Part shown: piece after piece, positions 7,068-28,504 of the stretch | Numbering within the stretch: the first letter of the stretch is position 1 | How the letters are laid out: the number at the start of each line of letters is the position of its first letter | IMG/VR virus record: IMGVR_UViG_3300027679_000022 | Location: 1-31,437 of that record | DNA length: 31,437 nucleotides | DNA from: a virus | Taxonomy: Duplodnaviria; Caudoviricetes | Reading direction: 5' to 3' (one strand) | The notes under the pieces: model-generated | What the model was told of the DNA's origin: nothing | What the model saw: only the letters and a program-made list of their open reading frames with translations | The model's database searches: none | Position numbers and translations under genes: made by a program

Positions 7068-7365
7068 CTAGTATCTCCCTCATACTGTTGTCAAAGTTAG
7101 ACATTGCTTCTTTGACTGAGAACTCTTCCCATACTTCTTCTGCCTTGCCATACTTGCTGGCTACTAAGATAGCAGCCAATGCTGTAACACAAGTCTTTGC
7201 TTCTTCTAGTTTATCTTCACATATAGTTTCATAGACATCACGCAATGCGCTGATGATGTCAAGCATTCTGGTATCAGATACTGGTATCGCTATAGCAAAG
7301 TCTAGATGTTCTATATGTTCCCAGAAACTATTGTCCAGGGGTAACGCACTCTCTGATTCTTCCAT
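7054..7365 (-). CDS. Hypothetical acidic protein (103 aa)
   Basis: Overlaps both neighbours in the same operon. Confidence 0.65.
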   Translation of the reverse strand: MEESESALPLDNSFWEHIEHLDFAIAIPVSDTRMLDIISALRDVYETICEDKLEEAKTCVTALAAILVASKYGKAEEVWEEFSVKEAMSNFDNSMREILDEKQ

Positions 7366-7963
7366 CTAGCCACTCACTTCCTTCTTTAATCATCATACTA
7401 TTGACGTCTTCGCCGTCAGGCATACTGATGATGTTGACATTGCCTAACTCTCTGCTGATTTTCTTGCCGAACTCTAGCCCTGCTGCATCACCGTCTGCTA
7501 ATACAATTACAACATCAAAGTCATCTAGTATCTTAGCGTAATGTGGCTTCCAATTGTTAGCCCCTGGTATACCCACTGTTGGGTGTGATGTCTTAACTGA
7601 CATCATAATGCAATCAAATTCACCTTCGGTAACGCATATGTATTTGTCTGCAACAAAACATGCTTGTGTATTAAACATGGTTGTCTTAGCACCTACTAGC
7701 CCCATATATTTAGGGTCTTCACCATTCATGCCACGGAATCTAATATCAACTACACCTGATGGTGTTATGTATGGGATAGCAAGCCTACCTCTGTATGGTT
7801 CATGCCCTGGGAGCGGTTCGTCTACCACCCCCAGATGAAAGATGCTTGCCTCTGCGACCGAGAGTTGACGGTTTGCTAGATAATCCTCTGCTAGATTTAT
7901 TTTGCTTGCGTATCTCTGTGTTGCCTGAAGTAAGAATTGACGCTGCGAATTCGAGAGCCTCAC
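7328..7963 (-). CDS. DNA primase catalytic/TOPRIM subunit (probable GTG start at 7963)
   Basis: GRLAIPY, IRFR, PKY, VTEGEFD and DGDAAG motifs; AAGGTGGTGA SD 5 nt before the GTG. Confidence 0.9.
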   Translation of the reverse strand: MRLSNSQRQFLLQATQRYASKINLAEDYLANRQLSVAEASIFHLGVVDEPLPGHEPYRGRLAIPYITPSGVVDIRFRGMNGEDPKYMGLVGAKTTMFNTQACFVADKYICVTEGEFDCIMMSVKTSHPTVGIPGANNWKPHYAKILDDFDVVIVLADGDAAGLEFGKKISRELGNVNIISMPDGEDVNSMMIKEGSEWLDGRIRECVTPGQ

Positions 7964-8183
7964 GGTAATCACCACCTTCTTTGTACATGATAAGAGAATA
8001 AGTATCGCCTTTAACTCCACATCCGTGGCAAATAAAAGCATTCTTGTCAAAGTTTACTGCTGCTGATGCATGACTGTCTATATGAAACGGACACTTCATC
8101 TTGCGCCAACCGCTGCCCATAGCAGGCACGGTGGCGCCTATGTAGTGGAGGTACTCACCGATGTCAGGCTTGTCCCTTTCCAA
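7800..8183 (-). CDS. DNA primase zinc-binding (CHC2) subunit
   Basis: CPFHIDSHAS...FICHGCGVKGD motif. Confidence 0.88.
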   Translation of the reverse strand: MERDKPDIGEYLHYIGATVPAMGSGWRKMKCPFHIDSHASAAVNFDKNAFICHGCGVKGDTYSLIMYKEGGDYREALEFAASILTSGNTEIRKQNKSSRGLSSKPSTLGRRGKHLSSGGGRRTAPRA

Positions 8184-8511
8184 TTGCTCTCCTTAATAAA
8201 TCTACATATACATAGCCAGGCATGGTGCAGTACCAATCTTCAGGGCTTCCCCTACCCTTACGTTTGTGCCACACCACGCCTGTCCATGCGTTGTCGTTAG
8301 CCATCTCGACTATCAACTCTTCTGTCCAGCCTGCTAAGTCCATCTTAGCGTGGTTTTTTATTTCTATTGTAACTCCAGGTATACCTGAAATGTCACCTTT
8401 ATCTAGGGTTGCACCAGCCAAGCGTCTGTCTACATAAGGAAACCATTGCTTGAGATATTTAACTACATCTCGCTCTGCTCCTGAGCCTTTGGCTTTGGCT
8501 GCGCTTCCCAT
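8164..8511 (-). CDS. Holliday junction resolvase (Hjc-like PD-(D/E)xK)
   Basis: KAKGSGAERDV...GDI...IEIKN motif; ATG 8511 is coupled to the upstream stop. Confidence 0.8.
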   Translation of the reverse strand: MGSAAKAKGSGAERDVVKYLKQWFPYVDRRLAGATLDKGDISGIPGVTIEIKNHAKMDLAGWTEELIVEMANDNAWTGVVWHKRKGRGSPEDWYCTMPGYVYVDLLRRAIGKGQA

Positions 8512-8636
8512 TACATACTCTTTTCTACCAAGTTTAACCAAGTAATGCAATCATTACAACCGCAACGTTCTACTGGTGCAGGATGTCCGTCAATTAATAC
8601 TTCTAAACTATTTAGAATCTTATCTAACTTACTCAT
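8511..8636 (-). CDS. Micro-ORF (41 aa, ...HPAPVERCGCNDC...)
   Basis: ATGA overlap with the helicase stop and TAATG overlap with the resolvase start. Confidence 0.7.
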   Translation of the reverse strand: MSKLDKILNSLEVLIDGHPAPVERCGCNDCITWLNLVEKSM

Positions 8637-9448
8637 ATCTTCATTTCCACTTGTCTGTAATCTCTTACTACATCTTCTAAGTACATAGAGGCTGGGTCAA
8701 ATGATAAAGATACATATGTGTTACCAGTAAAGTCTGCTTTACCGTAACGGTTTTTAACAGGGGCTACACATAAGTATGCGTCTGGTCCTTGCATCATCTG
8801 TCCTACTGTCAATACCATAGCAGGTACCTGACTAACCATACCCTGCAACGCTGAGCGTGGCTGACATGGAAAACCTTGAGCACCTTCTTTAGTATGGTGT
8901 AACACCAGTACACATGCATTGGTATCTCTTGCAAGATACTTGAGTTCTTTCATTACCTGTCGCATAGCAGCAAACTCTTCGCCACCATCAACAGCAATGT
9001 CCATAAGATTATCTACTACGATAAGCGTAGGACTTCTACCCCACATAGTTTCAAATGCAGATACCTCTGCATCTAAATCATTAAGTGTAGGGCTAGGTTC
9101 AAAGGACCAGTACAAATTAGAGAACTCTCGTAAGAGTTCTTCTGCTTTGGCTGGCTCTGTCTTAAGCATATGTTCCGCATGTGCTTGGCTTATTTTTGCT
9201 TTCATAGCAAGCAATCGCATAGCCATAGTATGTGCATTAGTATCAGCAGAGAAATATAAGGTTGGTTGTTTTAGTCTTGCTGCGATATGTAATGCAATAG
9301 ATGACTTGCCTGCGCCAGGTGTACCTGCAATTACAGTTACCTCTGCTCGTCTTAGTATCATACCTTCTCTTTGGAACGCCTGAAATGGTGGGGCTAACGG
9401 CTCCCCACCTACCTCAGGTTTGCCGATACTACGGCGTAATGTTTTCAC
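8633..9448 (-). CDS. DnaB-like (SF4) replicative helicase, ATPase domain only
   Basis: Walker A AGTPGAGKS, Walker B LIVVDNL, LVLHH and KNRYG motifs. Confidence 0.88.
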   Translation of the reverse strand: MKTLRRSIGKPEVGGEPLAPPFQAFQREGMILRRAEVTVIAGTPGAGKSSIALHIAARLKQPTLYFSADTNAHTMAMRLLAMKAKISQAHAEHMLKTEPAKAEELLREFSNLYWSFEPSPTLNDLDAEVSAFETMWGRSPTLIVVDNLMDIAVDGGEEFAAMRQVMKELKYLARDTNACVLVLHHTKEGAQGFPCQPRSALQGMVSQVPAMVLTVGQMMQGPDAYLCVAPVKNRYGKADFTGNTYVSLSFDPASMYLEDVVRDYRQVEMKI

Positions 9449-9549
9449 TTACAGTTATCCTCCAAGCATGCGTTGTCATTGGCGTGTTGACTACAATCTT
9501 CACAAATTATTTCCCAATGACCGCAGTTATTGCACCATGCTTTACTCAT
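9445..9549 (-). CDS. Cys-rich micro-ORF (34 aa, MSKAWCNNCGHWEIICEDCSQHANDNACLEDNCK)
   Basis: ATGA and GTGA overlaps with both neighbours; two CxxC motifs. Confidence 0.7.
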   Translation of the reverse strand: MSKAWCNNCGHWEIICEDCSQHANDNACLEDNCK

Positions 9550-10004
9550 GCTTTTGTTTGGTCGGCTTGGAAAGTATTCCATTCTGCTTGATTCTGCTTG
9601 ATGTACTGAGTAGTACACTTTGTCATGTCACCTTGTTTAGCGGGACAGAAGTAACCTTTGTATGGACCGAACTTACCTGTTAATCCATGGATGCGTGTCA
9701 TTGTACCGTGAGGGCAGTTGCGTGAGCCTGCACCCATAGATGGTGCAACAAATGCTGGTAGTCCATCAAATGAATCCACAACTGTGCCACCAAATGCTGT
9801 TGCAATTGATGCTACCTGTGGGTTAGGTGGTACTGCTGTATTAGTACCGCGTACTGCTGTCTCTACTTCTCCTACTGCTTCTACAATCTGAAAGATTGCA
9901 GATGTGATTTGTGTAAACTCATCAGGTGTTTCAGCACGCAAAGTAATCTGCGTACCTGCTGGAGTTTTTAGATTGATGCTGATAGGTGCTTCATTGCTGG
10001 GCAT
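9546..10004 (-). CDS. Phage replication/recombination-region protein with C-terminal Zn finger
   Basis: CPHG...YFCP...KC motif; AAGGAG RBS; lies between the exonuclease and the helicase. Confidence 0.7.
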   Translation of the reverse strand: MPSNEAPISINLKTPAGTQITLRAETPDEFTQITSAIFQIVEAVGEVETAVRGTNTAVPPNPQVASIATAFGGTVVDSFDGLPAFVAPSMGAGSRNCPHGTMTRIHGLTGKFGPYKGYFCPAKQGDMTKCTTQYIKQNQAEWNTFQADQTKA

Positions 10005-10781
10005 TTATTCTCCTTGAATAGGTGTTACTAGGGATTTCTTTGTGTCTCGGAAGGCACGGACTTTCATTGCTAACTCTATACCCTTCCAACCTTGTTTGAT
10101 GTCAACGAAATGCAGTTCACATTTACCACTACCTGCTGGTAGGTGGACAATGATTGCCTTCTCTTGGTTGACACCACCCCAAGAACCACGGGTTGCCGTG
10201 GCGGGGTCATACGGCAAGCCGTGTGCATACACTGCTAACTGCATGGCAATTTTATTTGGGTAGGCAATACTACCAGTCTTTAAGTCAGAGATGAACAACT
10301 CACCTTTGTATCCAACTACACGGTCAGGCGTACCTGCAATCTTGTATTTGTCCAACACACAGAACTGTTCAATAAACATATTATTAAACTTTTTAGTTGC
10401 ATCTGCGTATGCTTGTATGTCTGCTACATATTCTTCAGGTATAACTCCGAGGTCTTCGCCTCGGTCATACTTCTCTGTAAGTGTGTGTATGGCTGTGCCT
10501 ATAGTTGCTGCTGATGTAGCACCTGCTGCTTCCATTGAATCTTCTACTAACTTGTCCATCTCCAACTTGTTGTCTCTATTTGCAGATGCTGCTAGTAATA
10601 AGTCAGGTCGTAGTGTTAGACCTGCTGCTGCCATGCGTAACTTCCATGCTACTAATGCAGTGCCATCATCTAATGAACCTGCAACTGTAGTTGTACGTGT
10701 ATATGGTACAGCCTTACCGCCTTTAGGCGGTACAACCATAGGTCTACCGTAACGGTCTCTTGTGATTTCTACTTCTGACAT
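10005..10781 (-). CDS. RecB/Cas4-like PD-(D/E)xK exonuclease
   Basis: GTAIH, AGTPDRV, DLKTG and QLAVYA motifs. Confidence 0.88.
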   Translation of the reverse strand: MSEVEITRDRYGRPMVVPPKGGKAVPYTRTTTVAGSLDDGTALVAWKLRMAAAGLTLRPDLLLAASANRDNKLEMDKLVEDSMEAAGATSAATIGTAIHTLTEKYDRGEDLGVIPEEYVADIQAYADATKKFNNMFIEQFCVLDKYKIAGTPDRVVGYKGELFISDLKTGSIAYPNKIAMQLAVYAHGLPYDPATATRGSWGGVNQEKAIIVHLPAGSGKCELHFVDIKQGWKGIELAMKVRAFRDTKKSLVTPIQGE

Positions 10782-11785: not shown

Positions 11786-11917
11786 TGAGCAGTTTACCCA
11801 CATACTCAGGTGGTCACACCTCTTACAGTTGGTGCGAACTGGCTCTATAGTATTTTTATTCGCCCTAATCAGCCTGGCGTATCCGCGCTATCGCTGCCTA
11901 AGCAGTATGCATACGGA
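11786..11917 (-). ncRNA. Intergenic structured RNA: hairpin(s) followed by two tandem H-type pseudoknots
   Basis: CAGT-T-CGCACC-A-ACTG-TAAGA-GGTGTG and CCAC-C-TGAGTA-T-GTGG-GTAAAC-TGCTCA have the same geometry and are separated by one A. Confidence 0.6.
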
Positions 11918-14393: not shown

Positions 14394-14750
14394 TTACCAA
14401 CTTGCATAGTACTCAAACATAGCGTCATCAACGCTCTGTTCAAAGACTGTATTTAGTTTGTCAATAGTATCACTGACATCTGACCAATACCATTCATCTA
14501 TTTTGTTGTTACCAAAGAAGAAACCTTCTGTTGGTGGTAGTAATTCCATTGCTCTTTCTTCTGTGCGTGCATTTAATACTTCTAGGCATACTTCGCGCAA
14601 TACATACAGGTCTCGTTTGGTTAATGGAATAGGTGTGCCGTTATCTATTGCACCACTATAAGCAATAATCCAACCATGAATAGCATTAGCCTTACGCCAG
14701 TATGCTACCTCATGTACTTGCTTCTCGTATAGATACATGTCTAGTCCCAT
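14394..14750 (-). CDS. Conserved phage hypothetical protein (MGLDMYL...YWRKANAIHGW family)
   Basis: Recognisable widespread phage motif, including LLPPTEGFFFG and a YYASW end. Confidence 0.8.
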   Translation of the reverse strand: MGLDMYLYEKQVHEVAYWRKANAIHGWIIAYSGAIDNGTPIPLTKRDLYVLREVCLEVLNARTEERAMELLPPTEGFFFGNNKIDEWYWSDVSDTIDKLNTVFEQSVDDAMFEYYASW

Positions 14751-15034
14751 AAGTTTCTCTCCCCTTCATTGTTTTCTGTCCATGGATGTAGTTTGTGTTG
14801 ATTTATCATTGCGTATGCAGGTGCAGTTGACTCACCGCGCCATGTTATACCTTCAGGTAAGATAATCAAACGATTAAGGTCATTTTCCCAGTATGCTTCG
14901 ATTGCATGCATGCATGGTTCAGCCATGCTTACTGGTACTGGTGGGTAGAAGTTACCTGTTAAGTGTATTTCTATTTGTTGTAGTTGAGTTAAGTTATCCA
15001 TACTTGCTAAGTCTGTTGCAAAGTTATTGCCCAT
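14741..15034 (-). CDS. Hypothetical protein (97 aa from MGNNFA)
   Basis: GGAGGT RBS and TAATG coupling at 15034. Confidence 0.7.
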   Translation of the reverse strand: MGNNFATDLASMDNLTQLQQIEIHLTGNFYPPVPVSMAEPCMHAIEAYWENDLNRLIILPEGITWRGESTAPAYAMINQHKLHPWTENNEGERNLWD

Positions 15035-15344: not shown

Positions 15345-15686
15345 TTAGTTTGTTACGACCTCGAAGACTTCCAACTGTAACTGTGGTGCTCGGCGGTCAT
15401 TCTCTGCGACATTTTGACGGCGGTCAAACCTTGTAACTAAGCGACCCTTGAGCGTAACCAAGTCTGATTGTTCAGCACCTGCTCGCGTTACCCCTAGGAT
15501 TTCACCTACTGTTGAGTCGTCCATTGCCACGATGTTGATACCACATACATACACCTGGCGGTCAGCCTCACCGTTACTGAATGCTGACACCTCACGCTGG
15601 TCAAACCAACCTGTCACCATGGTTCCCTTTGAACCTGTGTACTGACGGACATTCTTAATCTTACCTGTAATTGTTACTTCGTTCAT
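15345..15686 (-). CDS. Single-stranded DNA-binding protein (OB fold), lacking an acidic tail
   Basis: MNEVTITGKI...LVTLKGRLVTRFD...QLEVFEV SSB-like pattern. Confidence 0.7.
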   Translation of the reverse strand: MNEVTITGKIKNVRQYTGSKGTMVTGWFDQREVSAFSNGEADRQVYVCGINIVAMDDSTVGEILGVTRAGAEQSDLVTLKGRLVTRFDRRQNVAENDRRAPQLQLEVFEVVTN

Positions 15687-15728: not shown

Positions 15729-15773
15729 AGGCTGATAGCCCGCTATCACGAAGTGTAGCGGGACTATCTGCCC
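15729..15773 (-). other. Long intergenic hairpin upstream of the SSB-like gene (no U tail)
   Basis: GATAG-CCCGCTA-CAC / GTG-TAGCGGG-CTATC with single-base bulges. Confidence 0.65.
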
Positions 15774-15776
15774 TTC

Positions 15777-15932
15777 TTAGTCGTACTCTGGGGTTTCGTC
15801 TAGTATTGCTTCAACTGTTTGCAGTGTCATGAGTATGCTTGCTTTGTGTATCTCGTGCCATCCTTCTTTTGCTTTGTATTCTTGCAGTGCGTACCTGATT
15901 AGTTTCAGGTCTGTTCGGTCTAGTTCTTTCAT
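15777..15932 (-). CDS. Hypothetical protein (51 aa, MKELDRTDLKLIRYALQEY...)
   Basis: ATGA overlap with the upstream gene. Not in the ORF track. Confidence 0.65.
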   Translation of the reverse strand: MKELDRTDLKLIRYALQEYKAKEGWHEIHKASILMTLQTVEAILDETPEYD

Positions 15933-16378
15933 CGTACATTCCCTTCTAGTGTGCGGTCACACGCTTGACAATCGTTGAACAACTTGGGTGTGAGTATGTT
16001 GCACCATGGGCACTGAACCTCACGACTGCGCTGGCGCATGTCGTCTAGTTCCCATAGTTCCTCATACACACCACCGTCTTGAAGGTTGGTGATTGGTTCT
16101 CTGTATTCCTCGCGTGTGTCCTCCCATGTCTGAGTAGCCCATACGAAGTATGGTTCTACTCTAGTGGTTGAACTTACCCAATCATGTCCACTTGGCATGT
16201 CTTTAAGCCAACTCCACGGACTACTGTATTGCAGGTTGCCCTCATCAACGAGTTGATGGGCAACTGCACTGTCCCTTGCTTCGCGTAGTTCTAAGCAGTT
16301 GTCACATACATCATCAAGCATCATGCAGTCATAGCATTGTGAGGTTACTGAGATACCTTGAGTTGTGTATTCGGTCAT
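15929..16378 (-). CDS. First gene of the leftward arm; Cys-rich protein with N- and C-terminal CxxC pairs
   Basis: CYDC/CDNC and CPWC/CQAC; GAAAGG RBS. Confidence 0.75.
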   Translation of the reverse strand: MTEYTTQGISVTSQCYDCMMLDDVCDNCLELREARDSAVAHQLVDEGNLQYSSPWSWLKDMPSGHDWVSSTTRVEPYFVWATQTWEDTREEYREPITNLQDGGVYEELWELDDMRQRSREVQCPWCNILTPKLFNDCQACDRTLEGNVR

Positions 16379-16449
16379 TGTCTTGCCTTTCGTCTTGTGT
16401 ATCCACCGACTGTGAATACGCCATTTGAAGTATCATGTAGCCTACGCAT

Positions 16450-17420
16450 ATCGTGACGAGAGAAGCGAGGAACGAAGGAGTAGGCGTCGTCACTCAGTTA
16501 GCCAATTCTTTGGCTGACTGCGGGGCGTGGCTGGACTGCGAGCCTGCGAGCAGGCGCACGCTTGCGGGCGCTTCAGACACGACAGATGCGTTGGGTGTAG
16601 GCGAAGGCGACTTAATTCCATGGGAATTTCGCCGAGACGCAACCCACGCTGAGAGTAATCGTGACCGCTTTGCTCTGCTGAATAGGCAGAGCAGGGAACG
16701 ATTTGACGGTCATGATACGATGATGGCATCGTAAGGAGGACGAGCCTGAGCATGGCTTGCATGGCTAGTGAGCGAGACTTGATGAGCGAACTAGACAGGC
16801 TTGACAGGCTGGCGAGAGATGTGGCTGGCGCGTAGTCGAAGAACCGAGGCTTGCCGAGACTTCTGAGACTAGCGAGTGGAACGAGCGGCGCGAGGCGCGT
16901 GGATACGCGACCTACAGCCTTCGGTCCGACCCTCAAAGACAAGCCGAATGCGAGCGTAGTTCAGCGAGCGTCTATGAGGTGCAGTCGGTATGACTGAACT
17001 GGTGAGGGTTATTCACCATTGCCAAGGCATAAGTTCATAGACGGACACGATAGGACAGCAGACGCTTTGCTCCTTGCTTGCAAGGATAGCAAAGAACTGC
17101 TTGGGTACGATTGAGGCTTCTCCGCAACACAGCGGACCGAGGACCTGCTACCGAACAAGGAGGGACCTGCTTAGCAGGCGTGCAGACGCCCCGAGCCTGC
17201 GAGGGGAACTGCTAGACTGCGGGCAGACGCCCGACATTGTGAGGTGCAGACGCCGAGGCATGAACAGAACTGCTTGCAGACGCTGTTCATTAAGAAGCCG
17301 ATTGAGTAGCCTGTCCTAGTACATACATTTATTTTTACTAGGTATGTATCAGACTGAGCCTCAGTCTGCAGGCAGACAGTATCCTGTCTGACAGCACTCA
17401 GTATAGTGTTCTGTCTGTAC
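16450..17420 (+). ncRNA. Large highly structured non-coding element (candidate ncRNA or folded ssDNA) of unknown family
   Basis: Continuous nested stems, G-U/G-T pairs readable on the + strand, a multi-branch junction and a five-fold repeated internal loop. GC- and purine-richer than its flanks, with no credible ORF. Confidence 0.6.
17058..17283 (+). repeat. Five GCAGACGC and five GA[A/C]CTGCT interleaved repeats
   Basis: GCAGACGC at 17058, 17182, 17223, 17246 and 17276; GA[A/C]CTGCT at 17094, 17142, 17164, 17206 and 17267. Confidence 0.9.
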
Positions 17421-17715
17421 AATAACAGTCCTGTCTAGTATCTATGACCCCCATAGTTTTAACTGTAGTGGATATTATATACTGTATCTCTACCTAAAAA
17501 TATTTCTGTATATAGTTACAGGGGGGTAGATAGATAGTCTGACCAGCACTTATATAAATACTTTAGAATAAAACGTTCGTTTTACCTGTTTGAACGGATT
17601 ATATATAAGTAGAGAGTTAAATAGTTCAGAACTCTTTTTATTGAGTTCTTCACTCTGTTACAGACTACTGTACAAACAACTATCTGTAGGGCGGGGGGAC
17701 TCTGCCACAAAGGAG
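17420..17715. promoter_or_regulatory. AT-rich inverted-repeat region upstream of terminase (candidate late promoter, origin or packaging site)
   Basis: ACTTATATA (17548) / TATATAAGT (17602), TCTACC/GGTAGA and GAACTC/GAGTTC inverted repeats; many CTGT motifs. Confidence 0.45.
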
Positions 17716-17721
17716 AAGAAC

Positions 17722-19629
17722 GTGGCAACACCAGCGCATAAGGGATTTAAAAAGGGTGGGGAGCACCACCTCGCCAAGGGGGTAACCCAAGCCAAGGCAG
17801 ATGTTATTGCTAGGGTCAAGGCAGGTGTATCTGTCCAAGCCGCTATGGTTGCGGCGGGTAAGAAACCCGATACTGTGCGCCAATGGATGAATCGTGACCC
17901 TGAGTTCGCCCGTGCCTTGGAAGAAGCCAAGGAAGAAGGCGGCAAGCAATCCTTCACCGCCTTGGGCGTCGAGAAGGAATCTATCCCATTTGCGGACTTC
18001 TCTAAGATGTTTTTTGACCAGACGGTATTCCCACATCATCAGGACTGGGTAGACCTACTGGAAGGGCGCGAACCTACGTGGCTCCACCCTTCTATGATTT
18101 ATGAGCCAGGCGAGGGGAACCGCCTACTTATCAATGTGCCTCCTGAGCACGCTAAGTCCACCGTTATCACGGTGAACTATCCAACTTACCGCATCGCCCT
18201 CAATCCTAACATCCGCATTATCGTGGTATCAAAGACATTGAATAAGGCACGCGAGTTCGTATACGCTATAAAGCAACGACTGTCTCACCCACGCTGGCTT
18301 AAACTGCAGACCGCTTATGGTCCAGAGGGCGGCTGGAAAGAAGACGCAGATACTTGGCGTACCGATACTGTCTATCTTGGCGGCGATGCGCGTAATTCTA
18401 GTGAGAAGGACCCAACCCTTCAGGCACTAGGTATGGGTGGTCAGATTTACGGTGCACGTGCTGATTTGATTATTCTTGACGACTGTATTACTACTGCTAA
18501 CGCCCACGAGTGGGAACAGCAGATTAACTGGTTACAGAAAGAAGTTATTACCCGTTTGGGTAAGAATGGTAAACTTTTAATAGTAGGGACACGAATTGCG
18601 GCAAATGACCTTTACAAAGAACTACGCAACCCTAAGCACTGGTCTGGCGGTAAAACACCGTTTACGTATATGGGTATGCCTGCGGTTCTTGATTATTCTG
18701 AGAAACCCGAAAACTGGAAAACCTTATGGCATGAGTCGGATAGCCCGTGGGATGGTGATTCGGACACTCCAAAAGCAAATGGACGTTATCCTAAGTGGGA
18801 CGGACAAGCACTCTTTAAGAGACGTAGTGAAGTTACGCCATCAACATGGGCACTCGTTTACCAGCAAGAAGACATCCAAGAAGACTCCATTTTCCCACCC
18901 GTGCTGGTGCAAGGGTCAACTAATGGGATGCGGAAGCGAGGTCCACTAAAGGCTGGTGCTGCTGGACATCCACCTCAGGTTGAGGGTTTACATACTGTAA
19001 TTGGATTTGACCCTGCTATGGCAGGTAACGCTGCATTTGTTGTAGTTGCATACAACAGGGCAGATGGAAAGATTTATGTGTTGGATTGTGTCAACATGGA
19101 AGAACCAACACCACAAAAGATTAGGGCAACAATTGAAGAACTCGTTATTAAGTACAGACCACAAGAGTTCCGAGTTGAAATCAACGCCCACCAAAAAGCC
19201 TACTCCCTTGACGAAGAACTACGAGGGTGGCTCGCTTCATACGGCGTACGGCTTGATGCTCACTTTACAGGCAAGAACAAATGGGACACATCTTTCGGCG
19301 TTGCCTCAATGTCCAACCTCTTTGGCACTGTCCGTGATGAGAAGTTTCAAAAGAACAACATTATAGAACTACCTTCATCTGAAGGTTCTGAAGGTATCAA
19401 AGCCTTAACTCAGCAACTTCTTACATGGAAGCCAGAGACTAAGGGTAAGACCGATACAGTCATGGCTTTATGGTTTGCCATTATACGCATCCGCGAGTTA
19501 ATGCAATCTGCAAGCCGAGCATCACAATACGCAAATAACAGATGGGCAACTCGTGCTCAAATGAACCAACGCCTTGCGGTAAACCTCGATGAGATGTTTG
19601 CAGAGCAATGGCAAGAAAACTACGGATAA
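17722..19629 (+). CDS. terL: Terminase large subunit with N-terminal HTH (TerS-like) extension
   Basis: AAGGAG plus GTG 17722; Walker A variant NVPPEHAKST, Walker B LIILDD, coupling motif VGTR, RNase-H IGFDPA and DTVMALW. Confidence 0.9.
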   Translation: MATPAHKGFKKGGEHHLAKGVTQAKADVIARVKAGVSVQAAMVAAGKKPDTVRQWMNRDPEFARALEEAKEEGGKQSFTALGVEKESIPFADFSKMFFDQTVFPHHQDWVDLLEGREPTWLHPSMIYEPGEGNRLLINVPPEHAKSTVITVNYPTYRIALNPNIRIIVVSKTLNKAREFVYAIKQRLSHPRWLKLQTAYGPEGGWKEDADTWRTDTVYLGGDARNSSEKDPTLQALGMGGQIYGARADLIILDDCITTANAHEWEQQINWLQKEVITRLGKNGKLLIVGTRIAANDLYKELRNPKHWSGGKTPFTYMGMPAVLDYSEKPENWKTLWHESDSPWDGDSDTPKANGRYPKWDGQALFKRRSEVTPSTWALVYQQEDIQEDSIFPPVLVQGSTNGMRKRGPLKAGAAGHPPQVEGLHTVIGFDPAMAGNAAFVVVAYNRADGKIYVLDCVNMEEPTPQKIRATIEELVIKYRPQEFRVEINAHQKAYSLDEELRGWLASYGVRLDAHFTGKNKWDTSFGVASMSNLFGTVRDEKFQKNNIIELPSSEGSEGIKALTQQLLTWKPETKGKTDTVMALWFAIIRIRELMQSASRASQYANNRWATRAQMNQRLAVNLDEMFAEQWQENYG

Positions 19630-22965: not shown

Positions 22966-23378
22966 TGGCACGTGGAGGTTATCGTCAGCCCAATAATCCA
23001 GCACCTGTATCAGGTCCTGGTGCGCTTTCAGCGCGTACAGATGGTGGTGCTACTGAAGGTATGACACAACCACAACAGCAGTACACAGGTTTTGGTTATG
23101 GTGAGAATGGTGCTACTAATACTATGCAAGGTGAAGCAGCAATGGCTGGTAATCCATTTTCTATGGCAGGTATTGTCCCATTAAATGCGCCAACAGAACG
23201 TCCAGACGAACCTATTACATCTGGAATTAATCAGGGTGAAGGTCCTGGAACTGAAGCAATGCGTGGTCTACCAAATCAAGCACCAACATTAATTGACACA
23301 ATAAAACATCTTGCACAGTTTGACCCATCAGGTGATGCAGAATTAATCTATAGACAACTACTTGATAAAGGGTACTAA
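22965..23378 (+). CDS. Gly/Pro-rich probable virion protein (137 aa)
   Basis: TAATG coupling on both sides; RGGYRQP...PVSGPGALS.RTDGG motif. Confidence 0.7.
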   Translation: MARGGYRQPNNPAPVSGPGALSARTDGGATEGMTQPQQQYTGFGYGENGATNTMQGEAAMAGNPFSMAGIVPLNAPTERPDEPITSGINQGEGPGTEAMRGLPNQAPTLIDTIKHLAQFDPSGDAELIYRQLLDKGY

Positions 23379-26300
23379 TGGTTCAGTACATTAAATCTGT
23401 TGTTGCTGAAGTTTCACCAAACCTTTATGTTGCTGCTAAATCTGCAGGTTTAACTGGTGTAGAGTTAACTCAAGTAGAACAAATGAGTTACACAATTAAA
23501 AAGCATCGTGAACTTGCTAAACTTGATACTGAAATTGCACGCAAACAATTTGATGGTTTAGATACTGGTGTACAAGACCAATTAAAGTTTATGTTTAAAG
23601 ATGCTGATTACATGCAAGCAGCACCAGATGTGAGTGACCGTCTTTTGGGCGTTGTTAAAAATGTTGGTAAAGTACTTGCTTCGCCTCTTATTGGTTTGTT
23701 TAAATTAGGTGGACAGTATAATCGTTTAATTAACGAACCCTATAAGGTTGCACGTCAGGTTGCACAAGGTGCAGATTTGTTTTCTATGAAAACATGGACA
23801 GATGCATGGGATGGCAAAAATCAATATGACCTTGGTGCGCTAAAAGAAGCAACAGATTACTTTGGTAAGTATGATGTTGAAGTTGCCAAGGGTTTACTTT
23901 ATGGTAAGACCCCTGGTGAAATTGTACAAGATTTTGGTAAACTAGATGCAGAACTACTTAACTCAATTAAAAAAGCATATGATGACCCTGATGCATTTAA
24001 ATTAGTTTTAGACGGAGTTAAATATGCACAGGTTTCTCCAGGTCGAGACATTGCTCGCATGCTTGACCGTAGACCACCTTCAAGCGGTGTTAGTAGTAAA
24101 ACTAAAAATGTTTCTGGCTACATTGACTTTATGTATCAGATTGCAGTAGACCCACTTACTTGGATGACAGGTGGACTTAGTAAAGGTGTTACCAAGGGTG
24201 AGCGTATTACTAACTCATTACTTAAGATGATTGATAATGGCGTTCCAGTTGAACGCGCCGTTGACACTATATTTAAAGAACCATTAGTGTTTAGATTGTG
24301 GGAAGATGGTATTGGTCCTGCACTTAAAAAGGTTGCAGATTCTAAAGGTGATGCTGGAGCACGTTCATTAGCACTTGACAATATTGCTAAAAACTTTCCA
24401 GGGTATAATGACCCTAATGCAATTAAACTATTAAGTGAGTCTAAAGTATTTAATGCAATGAGTGCTCAAAGATTTTTTGAAGATGCAGGTAATTTAAACT
24501 TACTTATTGCTGGTCGTGTTGATGGAATAACCTACATGCGCAATGGTGTTGCTGTTGCACGTCAGCATCGTTTAATGTCTGATGCTATGGTTCGTAGACT
24601 TGATAGTAGATTTAATAACATGTCTCGTACTGCAGCAGAACGTAATGCTGACTTGCAACCAATCACTGCTGCTCTTCTTAATACTGAAGATTCCTTGCAA
24701 CGTCTAGTTACTAAAGACTCTGATATGTCTGCTTTGTTAAAGGCTAATGAGGAAATTAAAGGATGGAAAAAAATTGGGCAGATGGCTGCTCGTTCTCCAC
24801 AAGGATTAGAAGTACGTATTGGTGTTAATGCTATTGATACATCTGCTAACTTTACAGCACGTGCTCGTCAGTTGTTACCAAAAGAAATGGCTCAAGCATT
24901 AACAGTTCGATTTCTTGATTCAACTGCAGATGAGCAAATTGTTATTTTACGTAACCTAGATGCTGCAACTATGTACTCAATGGGTCTTGGCGGTAGTGTT
25001 AAGGGTGAAGAATTAATTATTAAGACCCTTCAGGATAAGTATGGTGACAAAGCAGGCTTTGCAACTAAAAGAGACCTTGCTATTAATCCAGAACATGCTA
25101 AGTTTGCACCAGCAAACTCTGTGCGCGAGTCTGAAACTGGCTTTTTTGTTAACACAGAAGGTCCAATTCAACCATATCAAAGTACATGGGCTGTTGGTTC
25201 ACTACCTTATGAGATTATTGGTTCAACTATTTGGGAAATTAAATCTAAGAAAAACATTATTAACGCACTTGGTGGCGCAACACAAGGTAATTTCTCAAAA
25301 AAGTTAGTTGATACTTGGTCTATCTTAACTTTGTTTCCACGTTTAGGTATACGTTCTGCAGTTGATGAAGCAACAATGTATTTATTGTCTGCACCAACTA
25401 AAGATATACGTCACTTTGCATCATTACAAGGTTTACGTTTAGGAAATATGTCTCGTGCTGCTACAGGTTCTAAATCTGCTAGTGGTCCAGTACGCAGAAG
25501 CATACAAGCGGCATTAAAGTTAGTGCCTAAATCTAATGCTGCTATACGAACTGGTAAGCAACCACGTTATTCACACGAAGAAGCCCTATCAATAATGGAC
25601 CGTGAAAACATTATAAATGCTAAGGCTATTGAACTTGATGTAGCCCCAGCAATGATGTCTAGTCTCCAAAAACGTCAGGCTATTGCAGAACATATTTCTA
25701 ATATGTATGGTCGTTATGTTGATAAAGAATCCGTTGGCTATCTTATGCAATCATTTGTTCATTCACCTGACGCATTAAACTCTATGGCTGCATCAATTGT
25801 TGCTGCTAGTGGTATTTCTGGTCGCTATGGCGATGAAGTAACCGCTTCTGTCATTACACCATCTATGCTTGATATGGCTTTTGCAGCACTTGGTATTAAA
25901 ATGGGTAAGGGTACACGTACTATTGATACTGGTATGTTGTCAGAACAAGAAGTTGCATTAGCACACTTTGAAAAATGGTTTAAAATGTTGGCTGGTAACA
26001 AGGCTAAATTAAGCGATGAAGTTACACTTAATCCAGCAGACATATTCTTTAGATACAATGCATTAAAGCCAGGTGAGATTGACCCTCGTACTGGTAAGGA
26101 AATGATGGAACTAGCACTTGATGCTGGTATGACTAAAATTGGTTTTAAGTTTGATGAGTTAACTAAAACTTGGATTGTTAAAGATGCTGCAGACCAAAAA
26201 ACTGTTAATGCGTTTTTAGAACTTTCTATGTATACAGTGCAAGCCAGAGCAAAAGGCTTAAGCGATGAGCAGATTGTGCGTGGACAGTTATTCCGTATGT

Positions 26301-28504
26301 TTACTGATATGTTTGAAACATTTCATGGAGATGTAAACAAGTTTAATGAAGGTTTGCTTAAGGTAGTTAAAAGTAGTTATCGTGAATTAGAAAGAATGGC
26401 TGCTAACAGTGGTCGTATACCTTCATGGAATGAAGCAGTTGCTCGTATTCCATTAGATGAGTTTCATGATGCAAGTAAGGGGTTTCGTATTAGTGGACCA
26501 ATTAATACTGAACTAGCATTTGGTGATTTTAATATTGAAACTGTATTTAAGCGTGCAGGTAATACCATGATGGACTGGATGGACCAACAAGTAACAGGTG
26601 TATTCCGTCAGCCAGCAATTATGGTTACATACACAGGTCTTCGTAAGAAGTATGCAGGTATTGAGAGCGAGTTTGTACGTCAACAAGTAGCACGTGAGAT
26701 GGGTCCTTTCCCTGGTGCTACTCAAAAGCAAATTGATGCTGTTACTGAAAAGTATAAAGGTGTAGCAGAAAAACGATTTACTGAATTAGCAGTGCGTGAA
26801 GCAGCAGATACTATTCTTAAGTTTGCTGATAACCCTAAGATTCGTTCTAACTTTGCTTTTAGCATACGTACTGTAGGTCGTTACTATCGTGCAACAGAAG
26901 ACTTCTATCGCCGTATATATCGTTTGAAAGATGTTGCACCACGTACGTTATATCGCTTGCGTTTGTCTAATGTAGGCATTGAAGCAAGCGGCGCTATTCA
27001 TAATGATTCTAATGGTGAACCGTATGTAGTAATGCCTATGGATAATGTAATCTTTAAAGCAACTAATGGAACAATTGGTATGCTAACTGGACAGGGATTG
27101 CAAGGATATAAACAGCCTTTGTTTAATGAGTTTACATTTAAACTTCGCATGGTTAACCCATCATTCTCGCAAGATGCTGGTCTTCCTACATTATCTGGTC
27201 CTATTGCAGGTCTTAGCGTTATTGCGCTTAAAAATATATTAGGTGTAGTACCAGGTAAGATTCCATTTATTGGTGATACATTACAGCCATACTCACAGCA
27301 ACTAGGTGAGAGTATTGATACATTTGCACTAGGTAACATTGGCGATAACGTAGATATTTTTCGCGCTATAGTTCCTTCTTCTTTGCAACGTGTATGGGGA
27401 ATGCTTCCATTTGATGAGAAGTCTCGTCAAGAGACAACTGCTGCTATGCAGGCAATTGCTTATGATGCAGCACATGGTAGAGGTATTGACCCTAATGCTA
27501 GTGATGAGGATAAGGCTAAGTATCTAAATAACATTCGTATCTCAGCACACAATGTGTTGTTTATGCGTCATTTCTTGGGGCTGTTATCACCTGTTGCTCC
27601 TACTACTATGGAGTCTGTAGGTGTTCCTGATTACATCAAGGATACTGGTATCTCTAGTCTACGTTCAGAGTTCTTTGACATCCTTAATGGTGTTATTGCA
27701 TCTAGCGATGGAGACGTTACAGACCCATACGAAGAAGCATTGGCTACCTATATTGGTACTAACCCAGGTAAACTTATCTATACAGTATCTCGTGAAGATA
27801 AGCAGACTAGTGTTCTTATTAAGAACACAGATAAGTTAAAGAACTGGGGCATTAAGAATGCCAAGTTGATAGAGCAATACGGTGAAGTAGCATACATATT
27901 TGCACCACAAATTGGTGACTTCAATGCTGCTACATACAATTGGATTCAATCAGCAGGTCTTGTTGAGAGCAAAAGTCTTGAAGATTACTATAGAGATTTG
28001 CAGGTAGCAGAAGACAAACAAAAGTATTACAACATTGCACGTCAGGAAAAAGAAATCCTAAGTAATATGTCAGACCCAGAACTGCGTGCAAACGTTATCC
28101 AAGCAGCAACTGAACAACGTGCTGCGCTTAAGGCTAATAACCCATTACTTAACTCAGAACTTATTGGCAGTGGTAATACCATTGGTAATGAAACAGTATT
28201 AATGAATAGCCTAGAACAAATGATTATTAACCCTAATGTTAATATCAATCCAGCAACACGTCAACGTATGGCATTAGCCATTAAGATGATGCGTGATTTT
28301 ATTGCACTTGCTACTGACCCAGAATTAAAAAATGTAATTAATAGAACACAAATAAAGGCTGAACGTAAAGCACAGATTGAGGCTGACTTGAATGAATTAA
28401 TGATAGGCGATTTATATCTAAAAGAAGCAAACCGAGCAATCTTTAAATCTATTCTTAACTTTTATTCACGTGATTCATACTATACTTTTAAGGAGTTAAT
28501 GTAA
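23378..28504 (+). CDS. Very large probable internal virion/ejection protein (1708 aa)
   Basis: Long helical ORF in the morphogenesis operon. Size and composition resemble podovirus core proteins; no enzymatic motif recognised. Confidence 0.65.
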   Translation: MVQYIKSVVAEVSPNLYVAAKSAGLTGVELTQVEQMSYTIKKHRELAKLDTEIARKQFDGLDTGVQDQLKFMFKDADYMQAAPDVSDRLLGVVKNVGKVLASPLIGLFKLGGQYNRLINEPYKVARQVAQGADLFSMKTWTDAWDGKNQYDLGALKEATDYFGKYDVEVAKGLLYGKTPGEIVQDFGKLDAELLNSIKKAYDDPDAFKLVLDGVKYAQVSPGRDIARMLDRRPPSSGVSSKTKNVSGYIDFMYQIAVDPLTWMTGGLSKGVTKGERITNSLLKMIDNGVPVERAVDTIFKEPLVFRLWEDGIGPALKKVADSKGDAGARSLALDNIAKNFPGYNDPNAIKLLSESKVFNAMSAQRFFEDAGNLNLLIAGRVDGITYMRNGVAVARQHRLMSDAMVRRLDSRFNNMSRTAAERNADLQPITAALLNTEDSLQRLVTKDSDMSALLKANEEIKGWKKIGQMAARSPQGLEVRIGVNAIDTSANFTARARQLLPKEMAQALTVRFLDSTADEQIVILRNLDAATMYSMGLGGSVKGEELIIKTLQDKYGDKAGFATKRDLAINPEHAKFAPANSVRESETGFFVNTEGPIQPYQSTWAVGSLPYEIIGSTIWEIKSKKNIINALGGATQGNFSKKLVDTWSILTLFPRLGIRSAVDEATMYLLSAPTKDIRHFASLQGLRLGNMSRAATGSKSASGPVRRSIQAALKLVPKSNAAIRTGKQPRYSHEEALSIMDRENIINAKAIELDVAPAMMSSLQKRQAIAEHISNMYGRYVDKESVGYLMQSFVHSPDALNSMAASIVAASGISGRYGDEVTASVITPSMLDMAFAALGIKMGKGTRTIDTGMLSEQEVALAHFEKWFKMLAGNKAKLSDEVTLNPADIFFRYNALKPGEIDPRTGKEMMELALDAGMTKIGFKFDELTKTWIVKDAADQKTVNAFLELSMYTVQARAKGLSDEQIVRGQLFRMFTDMFETFHGDVNKFNEGLLKVVKSSYRELERMAANSGRIPSWNEAVARIPLDEFHDASKGFRISGPINTELAFGDFNIETVFKRAGNTMMDWMDQQVTGVFRQPAIMVTYTGLRKKYAGIESEFVRQQVAREMGPFPGATQKQIDAVTEKYKGVAEKRFTELAVREAADTILKFADNPKIRSNFAFSIRTVGRYYRATEDFYRRIYRLKDVAPRTLYRLRLSNVGIEASGAIHNDSNGEPYVVMPMDNVIFKATNGTIGMLTGQGLQGYKQPLFNEFTFKLRMVNPSFSQDAGLPTLSGPIAGLSVIALKNILGVVPGKIPFIGDTLQPYSQQLGESIDTFALGNIGDNVDIFRAIVPSSLQRVWGMLPFDEKSRQETTAAMQAIAYDAAHGRGIDPNASDEDKAKYLNNIRISAHNVLFMRHFLGLLSPVAPTTMESVGVPDYIKDTGISSLRSEFFDILNGVIASSDGDVTDPYEEALATYIGTNPGKLIYTVSREDKQTSVLIKNTDKLKNWGIKNAKLIEQYGEVAYIFAPQIGDFNAATYNWIQSAGLVESKSLEDYYRDLQVAEDKQKYYNIARQEKEILSNMSDPELRANVIQAATEQRAALKANNPLLNSELIGSGNTIGNETVLMNSLEQMIINPNVNINPATRQRMALAIKMMRDFIALATDPELKNVINRTQIKAERKAQIEADLNELMIGDLYLKEANRAIFKSILNFYSRDSYYTFKELM

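Follow-up and report, generated by a model that had tools for sequence, protein, structure and literature searches.

A modular, covarying one-strand fold between the early genes and the terminase of freshwater phages, probably formed in single-stranded DNA

Background

Between the early genes and the terminase gene of an uncultivated tailed phage (Caudoviricetes; IMG/VR record IMGVR_UViG_3300027679_000022) lies about 1 kb of DNA that a first-pass annotation, made from the letters alone, had marked as gene-free and densely base-paired and had assigned to no known family, proposing either a large structured non-coding RNA (ncRNA) or folded single-stranded DNA (ssDNA). The locus raises the questions of whether the fold is selected, in which nucleic acid it forms, and what it might do at this place. 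The analysed window is the whole stretch of 31,437 nt, from a linear virus record of 31.4 kb with an estimated completeness of 79%. Its early arm lies on the - strand, ends at 16378, and encodes primase, DnaB, RusA, an exonuclease of the PD-(D/E)XK type, WhiB, a sigma-like factor, DUF932, and SLT; the + strand from 17722 onward encodes terminase, portal, and large virion proteins. Coordinates of the relevant features are collected in Table 1.

Methods

Homologues came from terminase loci in two sources, viral contigs (425 loci) and metagenomes (442 loci), of which the 80 best were used in each case, and were supplemented by motif scans. Folding was compared with dinucleotide shuffles on both strands, as DNA and as RNA. 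For the loop test, distinct hairpins were counted by loop class and compared with shuffles; these counts are given as observed/expected. Two allele sets were used: set 1 comprised 48 alleles sharing under 60% of 12-mers, and set 2 comprised 11 independent alleles that had no more than 35% of their 12-mers in common with set 1, flanking coding sequence being included for some. DNA loop classes follow the title of Nakano et al. (2002) and PMC3201870, PMC13037366, and PMC10085684; the YTTR class and the RNA loop classes were taken as established.

Table 1. Positions of the element, its parts, and neighbouring features in the window
Feature	Position	Strand	Basis or remark
Early gene, SSB/PriB-type OB fold, no acidic tail	15345..15686	-	Atlas neighbours SSB/PriB 0.90-0.94
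17-bp hairpin ahead of the SSB-fold gene, cGAAg loop on +	15730..15772	+	Kept in most relatives
First early gene, CxxC protein, no family	15929..16378	-	Gene type varies with element allele
Hairpin H0, beside the ribosome-binding site of the first early gene	16402..16416	.	In all allele types inspected
P1 gene-proximal arm (16419-16437 plus CGTCA 16488-16492)	16419..16492	+	Cognate versus cross-allele duplex energies
Module A junction: J1 (16495-16520), J2, J3, J4 (16657-16703, invariant GAATA loop)	16495..16703	+	
P1 gene-distal arm, candidate single-strand promoter	16703..16732	+	TTGACG, TACGAT, CATCGT hexamers
Module B: purine-rich tandem G·A helix 16765-16794; four-way junction 16969-17043	16733..17047	+	
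Module C: optional cassette closed by GGACA/TGTCC	17048..17318	+	Block absence; closing-helix versions; motif counts
Putative direct terminal repeat	17319..17485	.	Right boundary ~17485; GACCC..TTAA motif; BF homology
Terminase large subunit with N-terminal small-subunit-like domain	17722..19629	+	PHROG 38; 43% identical to BF phage terminases

Folding and coding potential

On the + strand, positions 16400-17330 folded with a z-score of -8.6 as DNA and -8.0 as RNA, and on the - strand with -5.7 and -3.9, respectively (20 dinucleotide shuffles); for each strand and chemistry, 0 of 20 shuffles folded as well. Median z-scores over 20 alleles (8 shuffles each) were -6.1 as DNA and -4.7 as RNA on the + strand, and -4.5 and -4.4 on the - strand. 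The dense base pairing that had been read by eye was thereby confirmed, and all seven of the quoted stem pairs were present at their positions. The region was also, as described, richer in GC (57% versus 41% in the rest of the window) and in purines (58%). None of the five ORFs overlapping the element had a homologous locus with an intact frame over 80% of its length (31, 31, 8, 11, and 3 loci matched), so that the region is indeed gene-free; the same test applied to two flanking genes found intact frames in 60 of 63 and 74 of 101 loci.

Other parts of the first-pass annotation required revision. Its boundaries, 16450..17420, were shifted to a start nearer 16400 and an end at about 17318, and 17320-17420 was assigned to the putative terminal repeat. 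The pairing ATCGTGACCG/CGGTCATGAT was kept in 2 of 20 homologues, the conserved partner being AGGGAACGATT, with tandem G·A pairs, and the pairings GTGACGA/TCGTCAC and TACGATG/CATCGTA compete with a covarying long-range stem, P1. The argument that G-U pairs mark + as the folded strand was upheld in allele set 1, in which 38 stem G·T pairs were found versus 19.6 expected and 15 A·C pairs versus 24.8, and was without support in set 2, which had no strand asymmetry (G·T 14/6.0, A·C 15/5.8). That reading had also not included the position beside a putative terminal repeat, the helices built of tandem G·A pairs, or the promoter-like features of the base stem.

A search of the window against Rfam, with gathering and E-value thresholds, returned one chance mir-21 row (E 9.5), in agreement with the earlier statement that the element belongs to no known family, and seven pieces of related genomes gave no Rfam match. 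Comparison by blastn with phage records and 72,556 plasmid records (the latter at E 1) gave no match. One pattern scan yielded 18 matches, probably by chance, and a further one yielded none. No description of the element was found in the literature searched; supplements of RNA-motif surveys lay outside that search and could list parts of it.

The base stem P1 pairs 16419-16437 and 16488-16492 with 16703-16726. Its proximal arm is interrupted at 16438-16487 by an optional arm with tandem G·A pairs, present in the window, L096, and L107 only among 21 rows. Hairpin H0, outside this stem, is likely the 5' hairpin of the early mRNA. Whole hairpins of module B are gained or lost in relatives. Module C contains five copies of the internal-loop motif GCAGACGC opposite GA(A/C)CTGC, and in most carriers the motif count was 5/5 or 4/4; GCAGAC or GA(A/C)CTGC occurs 11 times on the + strand in 17001-18000, versus 0-2 per kb elsewhere.

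Variation among relatives

Rather than one fixed 1-kb fold, the region proved to be a mosaic (about 0.1 to 1 kb) of modules that are swapped within a family of freshwater phages. Module C is missing as a block in L017, L021, L022, L023, L028, L030, L031, and L032 and present in others, hairpin tips are lengthened or shortened by whole helices, several alleles share no sequence, and there is no core common to all. The 108 terminase segments placed on a tree carried the allele labels AB (19), minimal (19), X (12), A (9), Y (5), C (5), B (3), ABC (2), and AC (1), with 33 unlabelled, and sister rows were often unlike in allele (L020, minimal, beside L021, AB; L031, AB, beside L032, Y). In the metagenome set, 25 of 60 loci were without the GC- and purine-rich core by the rule applied, and many retain one stem capped by a GTCA/TTGAY apex. 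Searched across 99 sources, a J4 covariance model gave 21 matches, and neither BF phages nor ct2KA10 contributed any.

Covariation, proposed earlier as a check, was found in related freshwater actinophages as compensatory changes and whole-helix insertions. Among 15 distinct versions of P1, cognate arms formed duplexes of -8.7 kcal/mol on average versus -5.4 kcal/mol for cross-allele pairs; the cognate partner was best in its own row in 6 of 15, and the others were near-ties within one sequence family. In J4, 97.2% of cells were paired (31-44% in slid controls) and 13 cells had changed on both sides, a value reached by 0 of 500 shuffles; these double changes were confined to three pairs (47 of 500 shuffles). 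In L096, C-G pairs stand in for the tandem G·A. The closing helix of module C (9 rows in all) occurs in three versions, fully paired in 7 of 7 rows reaching both ends. Covariation inside module C was limited to 1 of 64 pairs because the interior is too conserved, and RNAalifold, run on the sequence alignment of module A, recovered two helices only because the optional arms break the alignment. At the level of sequence comparison, P1 and J4 were thus shown to covary, which indicates that pairing is under selection on one strand.

Genome context

The nearest cultured relatives are the Streptomyces cluster BF podoviruses (Beephvirinae), at 43% terminase identity. One of these, FlowerPower, has a 253-bp direct terminal repeat that starts 623 nt upstream of terL, with termini determined from reads according to PMC9753666, and 1134 non-coding nt separate its last early gene from the right repeat. 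The GACCC..TTAA motif near the repeat end was present in 62 of 69 freshwater intergenic regions and also at the repeat end of BF phages, and the sequence past the BF repeat end aligned with the window from 17486 onward. Based on this homology of repeat layout and repeat-end motif, the element is placed immediately inward of the right terminal repeat and ahead of the early genes; it would be the last unique sequence before a right repeat ending near 17485. A 22-nt inverted insertion in L001 (~1060-1095), at the presumed repeat boundary, copies window 17465-17486 and may represent a fold-back at the end of the molecule or an assembly artefact. DNA contig depth over 17014-17599 was higher in 2 of 4 runs, a rise that does not map the repeat because relatives are mixed in the contigs.

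GTDB genomes gave no motif match and no terminase relative, and therefore no host by prophage; assignment of the host phylum to Actinobacteria rests on WhiB and the kinship with BF phages. Upstream of terL, window 17576-17655 contains a conserved GTTCG..TGAAC inverted motif and a covarying hairpin, which may be a late promoter or a concatemer-processing site.

DNA or RNA

The DNA loop set was in excess in both allele sets (57/24.2 in set 1 and 31/7.4 in set 2), and the RNA loop set was in excess in neither (7/10.1 and 2/2.9). By class, set 1 gave cGNAg 12/5.2, gCNNGc 22/9.8, YTTR (CTTG/TTTA-type) 19/3.3, GNRA 7/9.2, and cUNCGg 0/0.9, with no excess of cGNNAg (3/5.8); set 2 gave cGNAg 12/1.6, cCNNGg 7/0.9, YTTR 11/1.5, and GNRA 2/2.4. 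The DNA set also scored 23/5.3 on the - strand of set 2, since CNNG loops are symmetric. Tandem G·A pairs in set 1 numbered 26 versus 7.2 expected, 16 of them in a YGAR context, on the + strand only; this excess was not replicated in set 2 (3/2.1). RNA, too, can form stable gCUUGc loops and stable tandem G·A; when gCTTGc was left out, the DNA set still reached 50/23.7 and 25/7.1 in sets 1 and 2, respectively. Few loops can be counted in the window by itself (DNA set 4/1.0). When 46 of the 59 alleles were split at the P1 arm, the DNA signature was found both in the P1 domain and in the part downstream. A first count had shown no excess of hairpins overall (289 versus 270) because shared hairpins were counted once.

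The same count applied to E. coli rRNA, rnpB, and ssrA gave the opposite picture, with 3/4.9 for the DNA set and 16/2.8 for the RNA set. The viral strand of the M13 intergenic region matches the element in signature, with two cGNAg loops, one tandem G·A, and no RNA loops, and its complement has none; the template strand of the F leading region gave tandem G·A 4/0.9 and RNA set 0/1.8. The DNA loop signature was absent from BF phages and a 64%-identical relative, the BF phage ends being RNA-like (GNRA 4/1.5 and 6/1.7) and free of a tandem G·A excess. Elsewhere in the genomes, 3 of 10 tetraloops in hairpins between co-oriented genes were GNRA on the mRNA strand. Motifs of ssDNA and RNA are described as hard to separate computationally in PMC5737381. 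The element is considered a real, selected, one-strand fold and probably folded DNA; a selected + strand fold outside Rfam stands, and of the two forms first proposed we regard ssDNA as clearly favoured over RNA.

Base stem

The element precedes the early genes and is folded in the strand that serves as their template, and the distal arm of P1 in the window carries TTGACG (16703-16708) followed by TACGAT (16716-16721, spacer 7) and CATCGT (16727-16732, spacer 18). Of 59 cores, 44 had TTGAC on the + strand, where 25 were expected, and 39 had TGTCA, where 18 were expected. The spacer counts that follow overstate significance against shuffles because arms were picked by a TTGAC pattern (some of them wrongly) and the alleles are related: YAnnnT at spacer 16-18 after a distal TTGAC-type start occurred in 18 of 67 arms (4.1 in shuffles, maximum 11), as against 5 of 67 proximal arms when these were read in the direction of the gene; per spacer, the 67 arms gave 14, 8, and 10 at 6-8, 4, 10, and 4 at 16-18, and 0-3 elsewhere; and a second pick of 50 arms gave 28 at spacer 4-8 (5.5 expected) and 19 at 16-18 (3.2 expected).

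The strongest -10-like peak, at spacer 6-8, is not at promoter spacing, the hexamers at 16-18 mostly start with C, and minimal and Y-type alleles mostly have no 16-18 box. Where arms were inspected, a bulge or bubble adjoined the first hexamer, and the stem base of X alleles fell within the second. A sigma-70 scan of the window found no promoter, and linear TTGAC-17-TAnnnT was not enriched. In duplex DNA the P1 boxes point away from the early genes.

Discussion

The reading preferred here, with a probability of roughly one half, is that the covarying modular fold of the + strand forms in ssDNA and that host RNA polymerase uses P1 as a single-strand promoter or priming site directed at the early genes. 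It is based on selection for pairing on one strand, the DNA-type loops, the template-strand position, and the TTGAC and -10-like hexamers of the distal arm. The right genome end, carrying the early genes, would enter the cell first, and its + strand would become single-stranded, most simply by 5'-to-3' resection (PD-(D/E)XK exonuclease) or during replication. Tailed phages are known to inject duplex DNA, and the putative single-strand exposure of the + strand is the weak link of the proposal. P1 would then fold with its distal arm as the non-template and its proximal arm as the template strand, and the polymerase would run leftward off the stem base into H0, the ribosome-binding site, and the first early gene; its product would be either early mRNA or a primer from which the second strand is restored. 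An accessory role would fall to modules B and C, which would compact the exposed strand and offer repeated loops for protein binding.

By analogy, the element would work most like Frpo/ssi and ssDNA origins, from which it is set apart by replicon type and sequence. Frpo/ssi in the leading regions of F and ColIb-P9 (defined in PMC11541004 and PMC9849209), a kind of device known above all from conjugative plasmids, likewise have a template-strand fold upstream of early genes and SSB, DUF932, and SLT genes as neighbours, and the -35 and -10 boxes on one of their arms have candidate counterparts here. The present element differs in belonging to a lytic-type tailed phage in which no conjugation genes were seen (no relaxase, transfer, or Rep gene among the families scanned in the window and relatives), in having no sequence similarity to the plasmid records, and in its length of up to 1 kb, multi-way junctions, swappable modules, and second -10-like hexamer at spacer 6-8. 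Intergenic signals of M13/f1 (packaging hairpin and minus-strand origin) and plasmid single-strand origins share the one-strand fold with DNA-type loops and tandem G·A and the TTGAC in a stem, but their genomes are single-stranded or rolling-circle; no rolling-circle initiator was found among the window proteins and the 19 of 41 family representatives scanned from 10 near-complete relatives, and the CS-6 consensus motif showed no enrichment (21 contexts versus 17.9 expected). Promoters of the N4 virion RNA polymerase are comparable in being template-strand hairpins with GNA triloops, close to the genome end that enters (here, would enter) first, whereas the hairpins here belong to large domains. 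The right-end non-coding region of BF phages has the same place between the last early gene and the direct terminal repeat and shares the repeat-end motif, but it holds leftward TTGACA sites and GNRA loops without a tandem G·A excess. The GOLLD, ROOL, and OLE ncRNAs resemble the element in being large, ornate, covarying, phage-borne, and freshwater; here there is no Rfam match, no universal core, and no excess of RNA loop motifs, and the window has no tRNA genes, whereas GOLLD/ROOL often lie beside tRNA islands.

An unlikely alternative is a large + strand ncRNA, GOLLD/ROOL-like in role and transcribed, for example, rightward through modules B and C from TTGACG-18-CATCGT. The RNA folding z-score of -8.0, the G·T asymmetry of set 1, the difficulty of telling ssDNA from RNA motifs by computation (PMC5737381), and contigs of three metatranscriptomes on parts of the element would all fit, although the contigs (X21 spanning 16505-16724, X23 16800-17037, and X20 none in 16801-17400) were counted neither way because they carry no strand or level. 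The loop gCUUGc is, moreover, a known RNA loop. Against such a transcript, GNRA and UNCG are without excess in either allele set and past the putative start (6/6.8 and 0/0.7), where cGNAg reaches 17/4.1; P1 pairs with sequence upstream of the putative rightward promoter; the window has no + strand terminator pattern in addition to no Rfam match and no tRNAs; and no core is common to all alleles.

The fold may instead be ssDNA without promoter activity, a tentative reading that we hold to be improbable: a shield, decoy, or protein scaffold at an exposed end, or cargo of a host-conflict slot, which may resist nucleases and SSB or titrate a host ssDNA sensor. All of the evidence for ssDNA applies to it, mini-hairpins are stated in PMC13037366 to resist exonuclease and to bind SSB poorly, and module C repeats one internal loop 4-5 times. 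It is kept alive by hypervariability, with unrelated alleles scattered over the terminase tree, and by the SLOG (YAcAr) and DUF4326 genes that usually occupy the slot where the element is minimal, a linkage of allele and neighbour gene that may be simple co-transfer; the retention of TTGAC and -10-like hexamers across unrelated alleles would be left unexplained. Distinctly less probable is a concatemer-processing signal, which would take up its fold during duplication or annealing of the terminal repeat and whose GCAGAC-type repeats would bind terminase. The element does adjoin the presumed repeat and a terL with a small-subunit-like domain, and these repeats are concentrated beside them, but most relatives have no module C, the fold is conserved at the early-gene side rather than at the repeat, natural minimal alleles already suggest packaging independent of modules beyond P1, and under the T7 model it is the - strand that would be displaced. 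Cruciform formation by duplex DNA, or pairing that arose by chance because the spacer is GC-rich, would account for the - strand also beating shuffles, yet the opposite strand has T·C and A·C where the + strand has tandem G·A and G·T; this explanation is largely refuted by long-range covariation and strand asymmetry and is very improbable.

In nature, ssDNA folds more elaborate than simple hairpins have been called rare (PMC5737381). If the preferred reading of a single-strand promoter in folded ssDNA is true, it would imply an unrecognised single-stranded stage at the genome end in phages of abundant freshwater Actinobacteria. Covarying DNA folds that reach 1 kb and contain junctions, helices of tandem G·A pairs, and repeated internal loops would provide a set for DNA structural biology, and the loop test a cheap means of re-sorting phage 'candidate RNAs' into RNA and DNA. 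A wider extension, speculative and doubtful at this point, is that phages deliver or convert their first one to two kb as ssDNA and take their earliest expression from ribozyme-sized folded DNA, with the exchangeable domains as weapons of host conflict; the element would then be the equivalent, in phages, of the leading region of conjugative plasmids, and would found a new class of structured DNA in nature.

Neighbouring genes and other loci

SSB-fold, DUF932, and SLT genes are common to the early arm and the F leading region. In a fold search with the product of 15345-15686, the top rows were SSB and PriB at E ~1e-3, with no row reaching 0.001 or lower. The early arm has small SSB/PriB-fold genes of two separate families (window 15345-15686; L194:1256-1573; L005:2159-2545), the second of which is the first gene beside X-type alleles. 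In minimal-element phages, the SLOG (YAcAr) and DUF4326 genes of the slot are found, for instance, in L025:2246-2986, L137, and L062, and such genes have been linked to counter-defence in PMC9503650. The hairpin ahead of the SSB-fold gene has a C-G-closed, purine-ended triloop on the + strand in 13 of 29 distinct versions (GAA, GTA, AAG, AAA, AGA, ATG, and AGG) and may be an mRNA leader or a second ssDNA signal; a genome-wide comparison of intergenic hairpins was, with 45 hairpins, too small to give its strand.

Primase, a short DnaB, RusA, and an exonuclease are present (window 7328-10781 and G001-G010), but no DNA polymerase was seen in the window or in the scanned families of near-complete relatives; FlowerPower is likewise without an annotated DNA polymerase. 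At the right ends of BF phages (L083, L118-L121), the leftward TTGACA sites number two or three and are paired with GAGAGT-like -10 boxes; in some, the spacer contains a hairpin. Window 23378-28504, after the portal gene, encodes a 1708-aa protein of no Pfam or PHROG family, whose nearest named Atlas clusters carry LPD38/LPD3/MuF_C and which is probably an ejected virion protein; a virion-encapsidated T7-like RNA polymerase was considered and rejected, as sequence motifs revealed no polymerase motif in it. Several deep contigs in two metatranscriptomes match window 11842-11879, with loose ends that run on into other sequence. Contigs of two RNA runs skip 284 bases at window 14746-15029, most of one early ORF, and probably derive from a strain without this gene.
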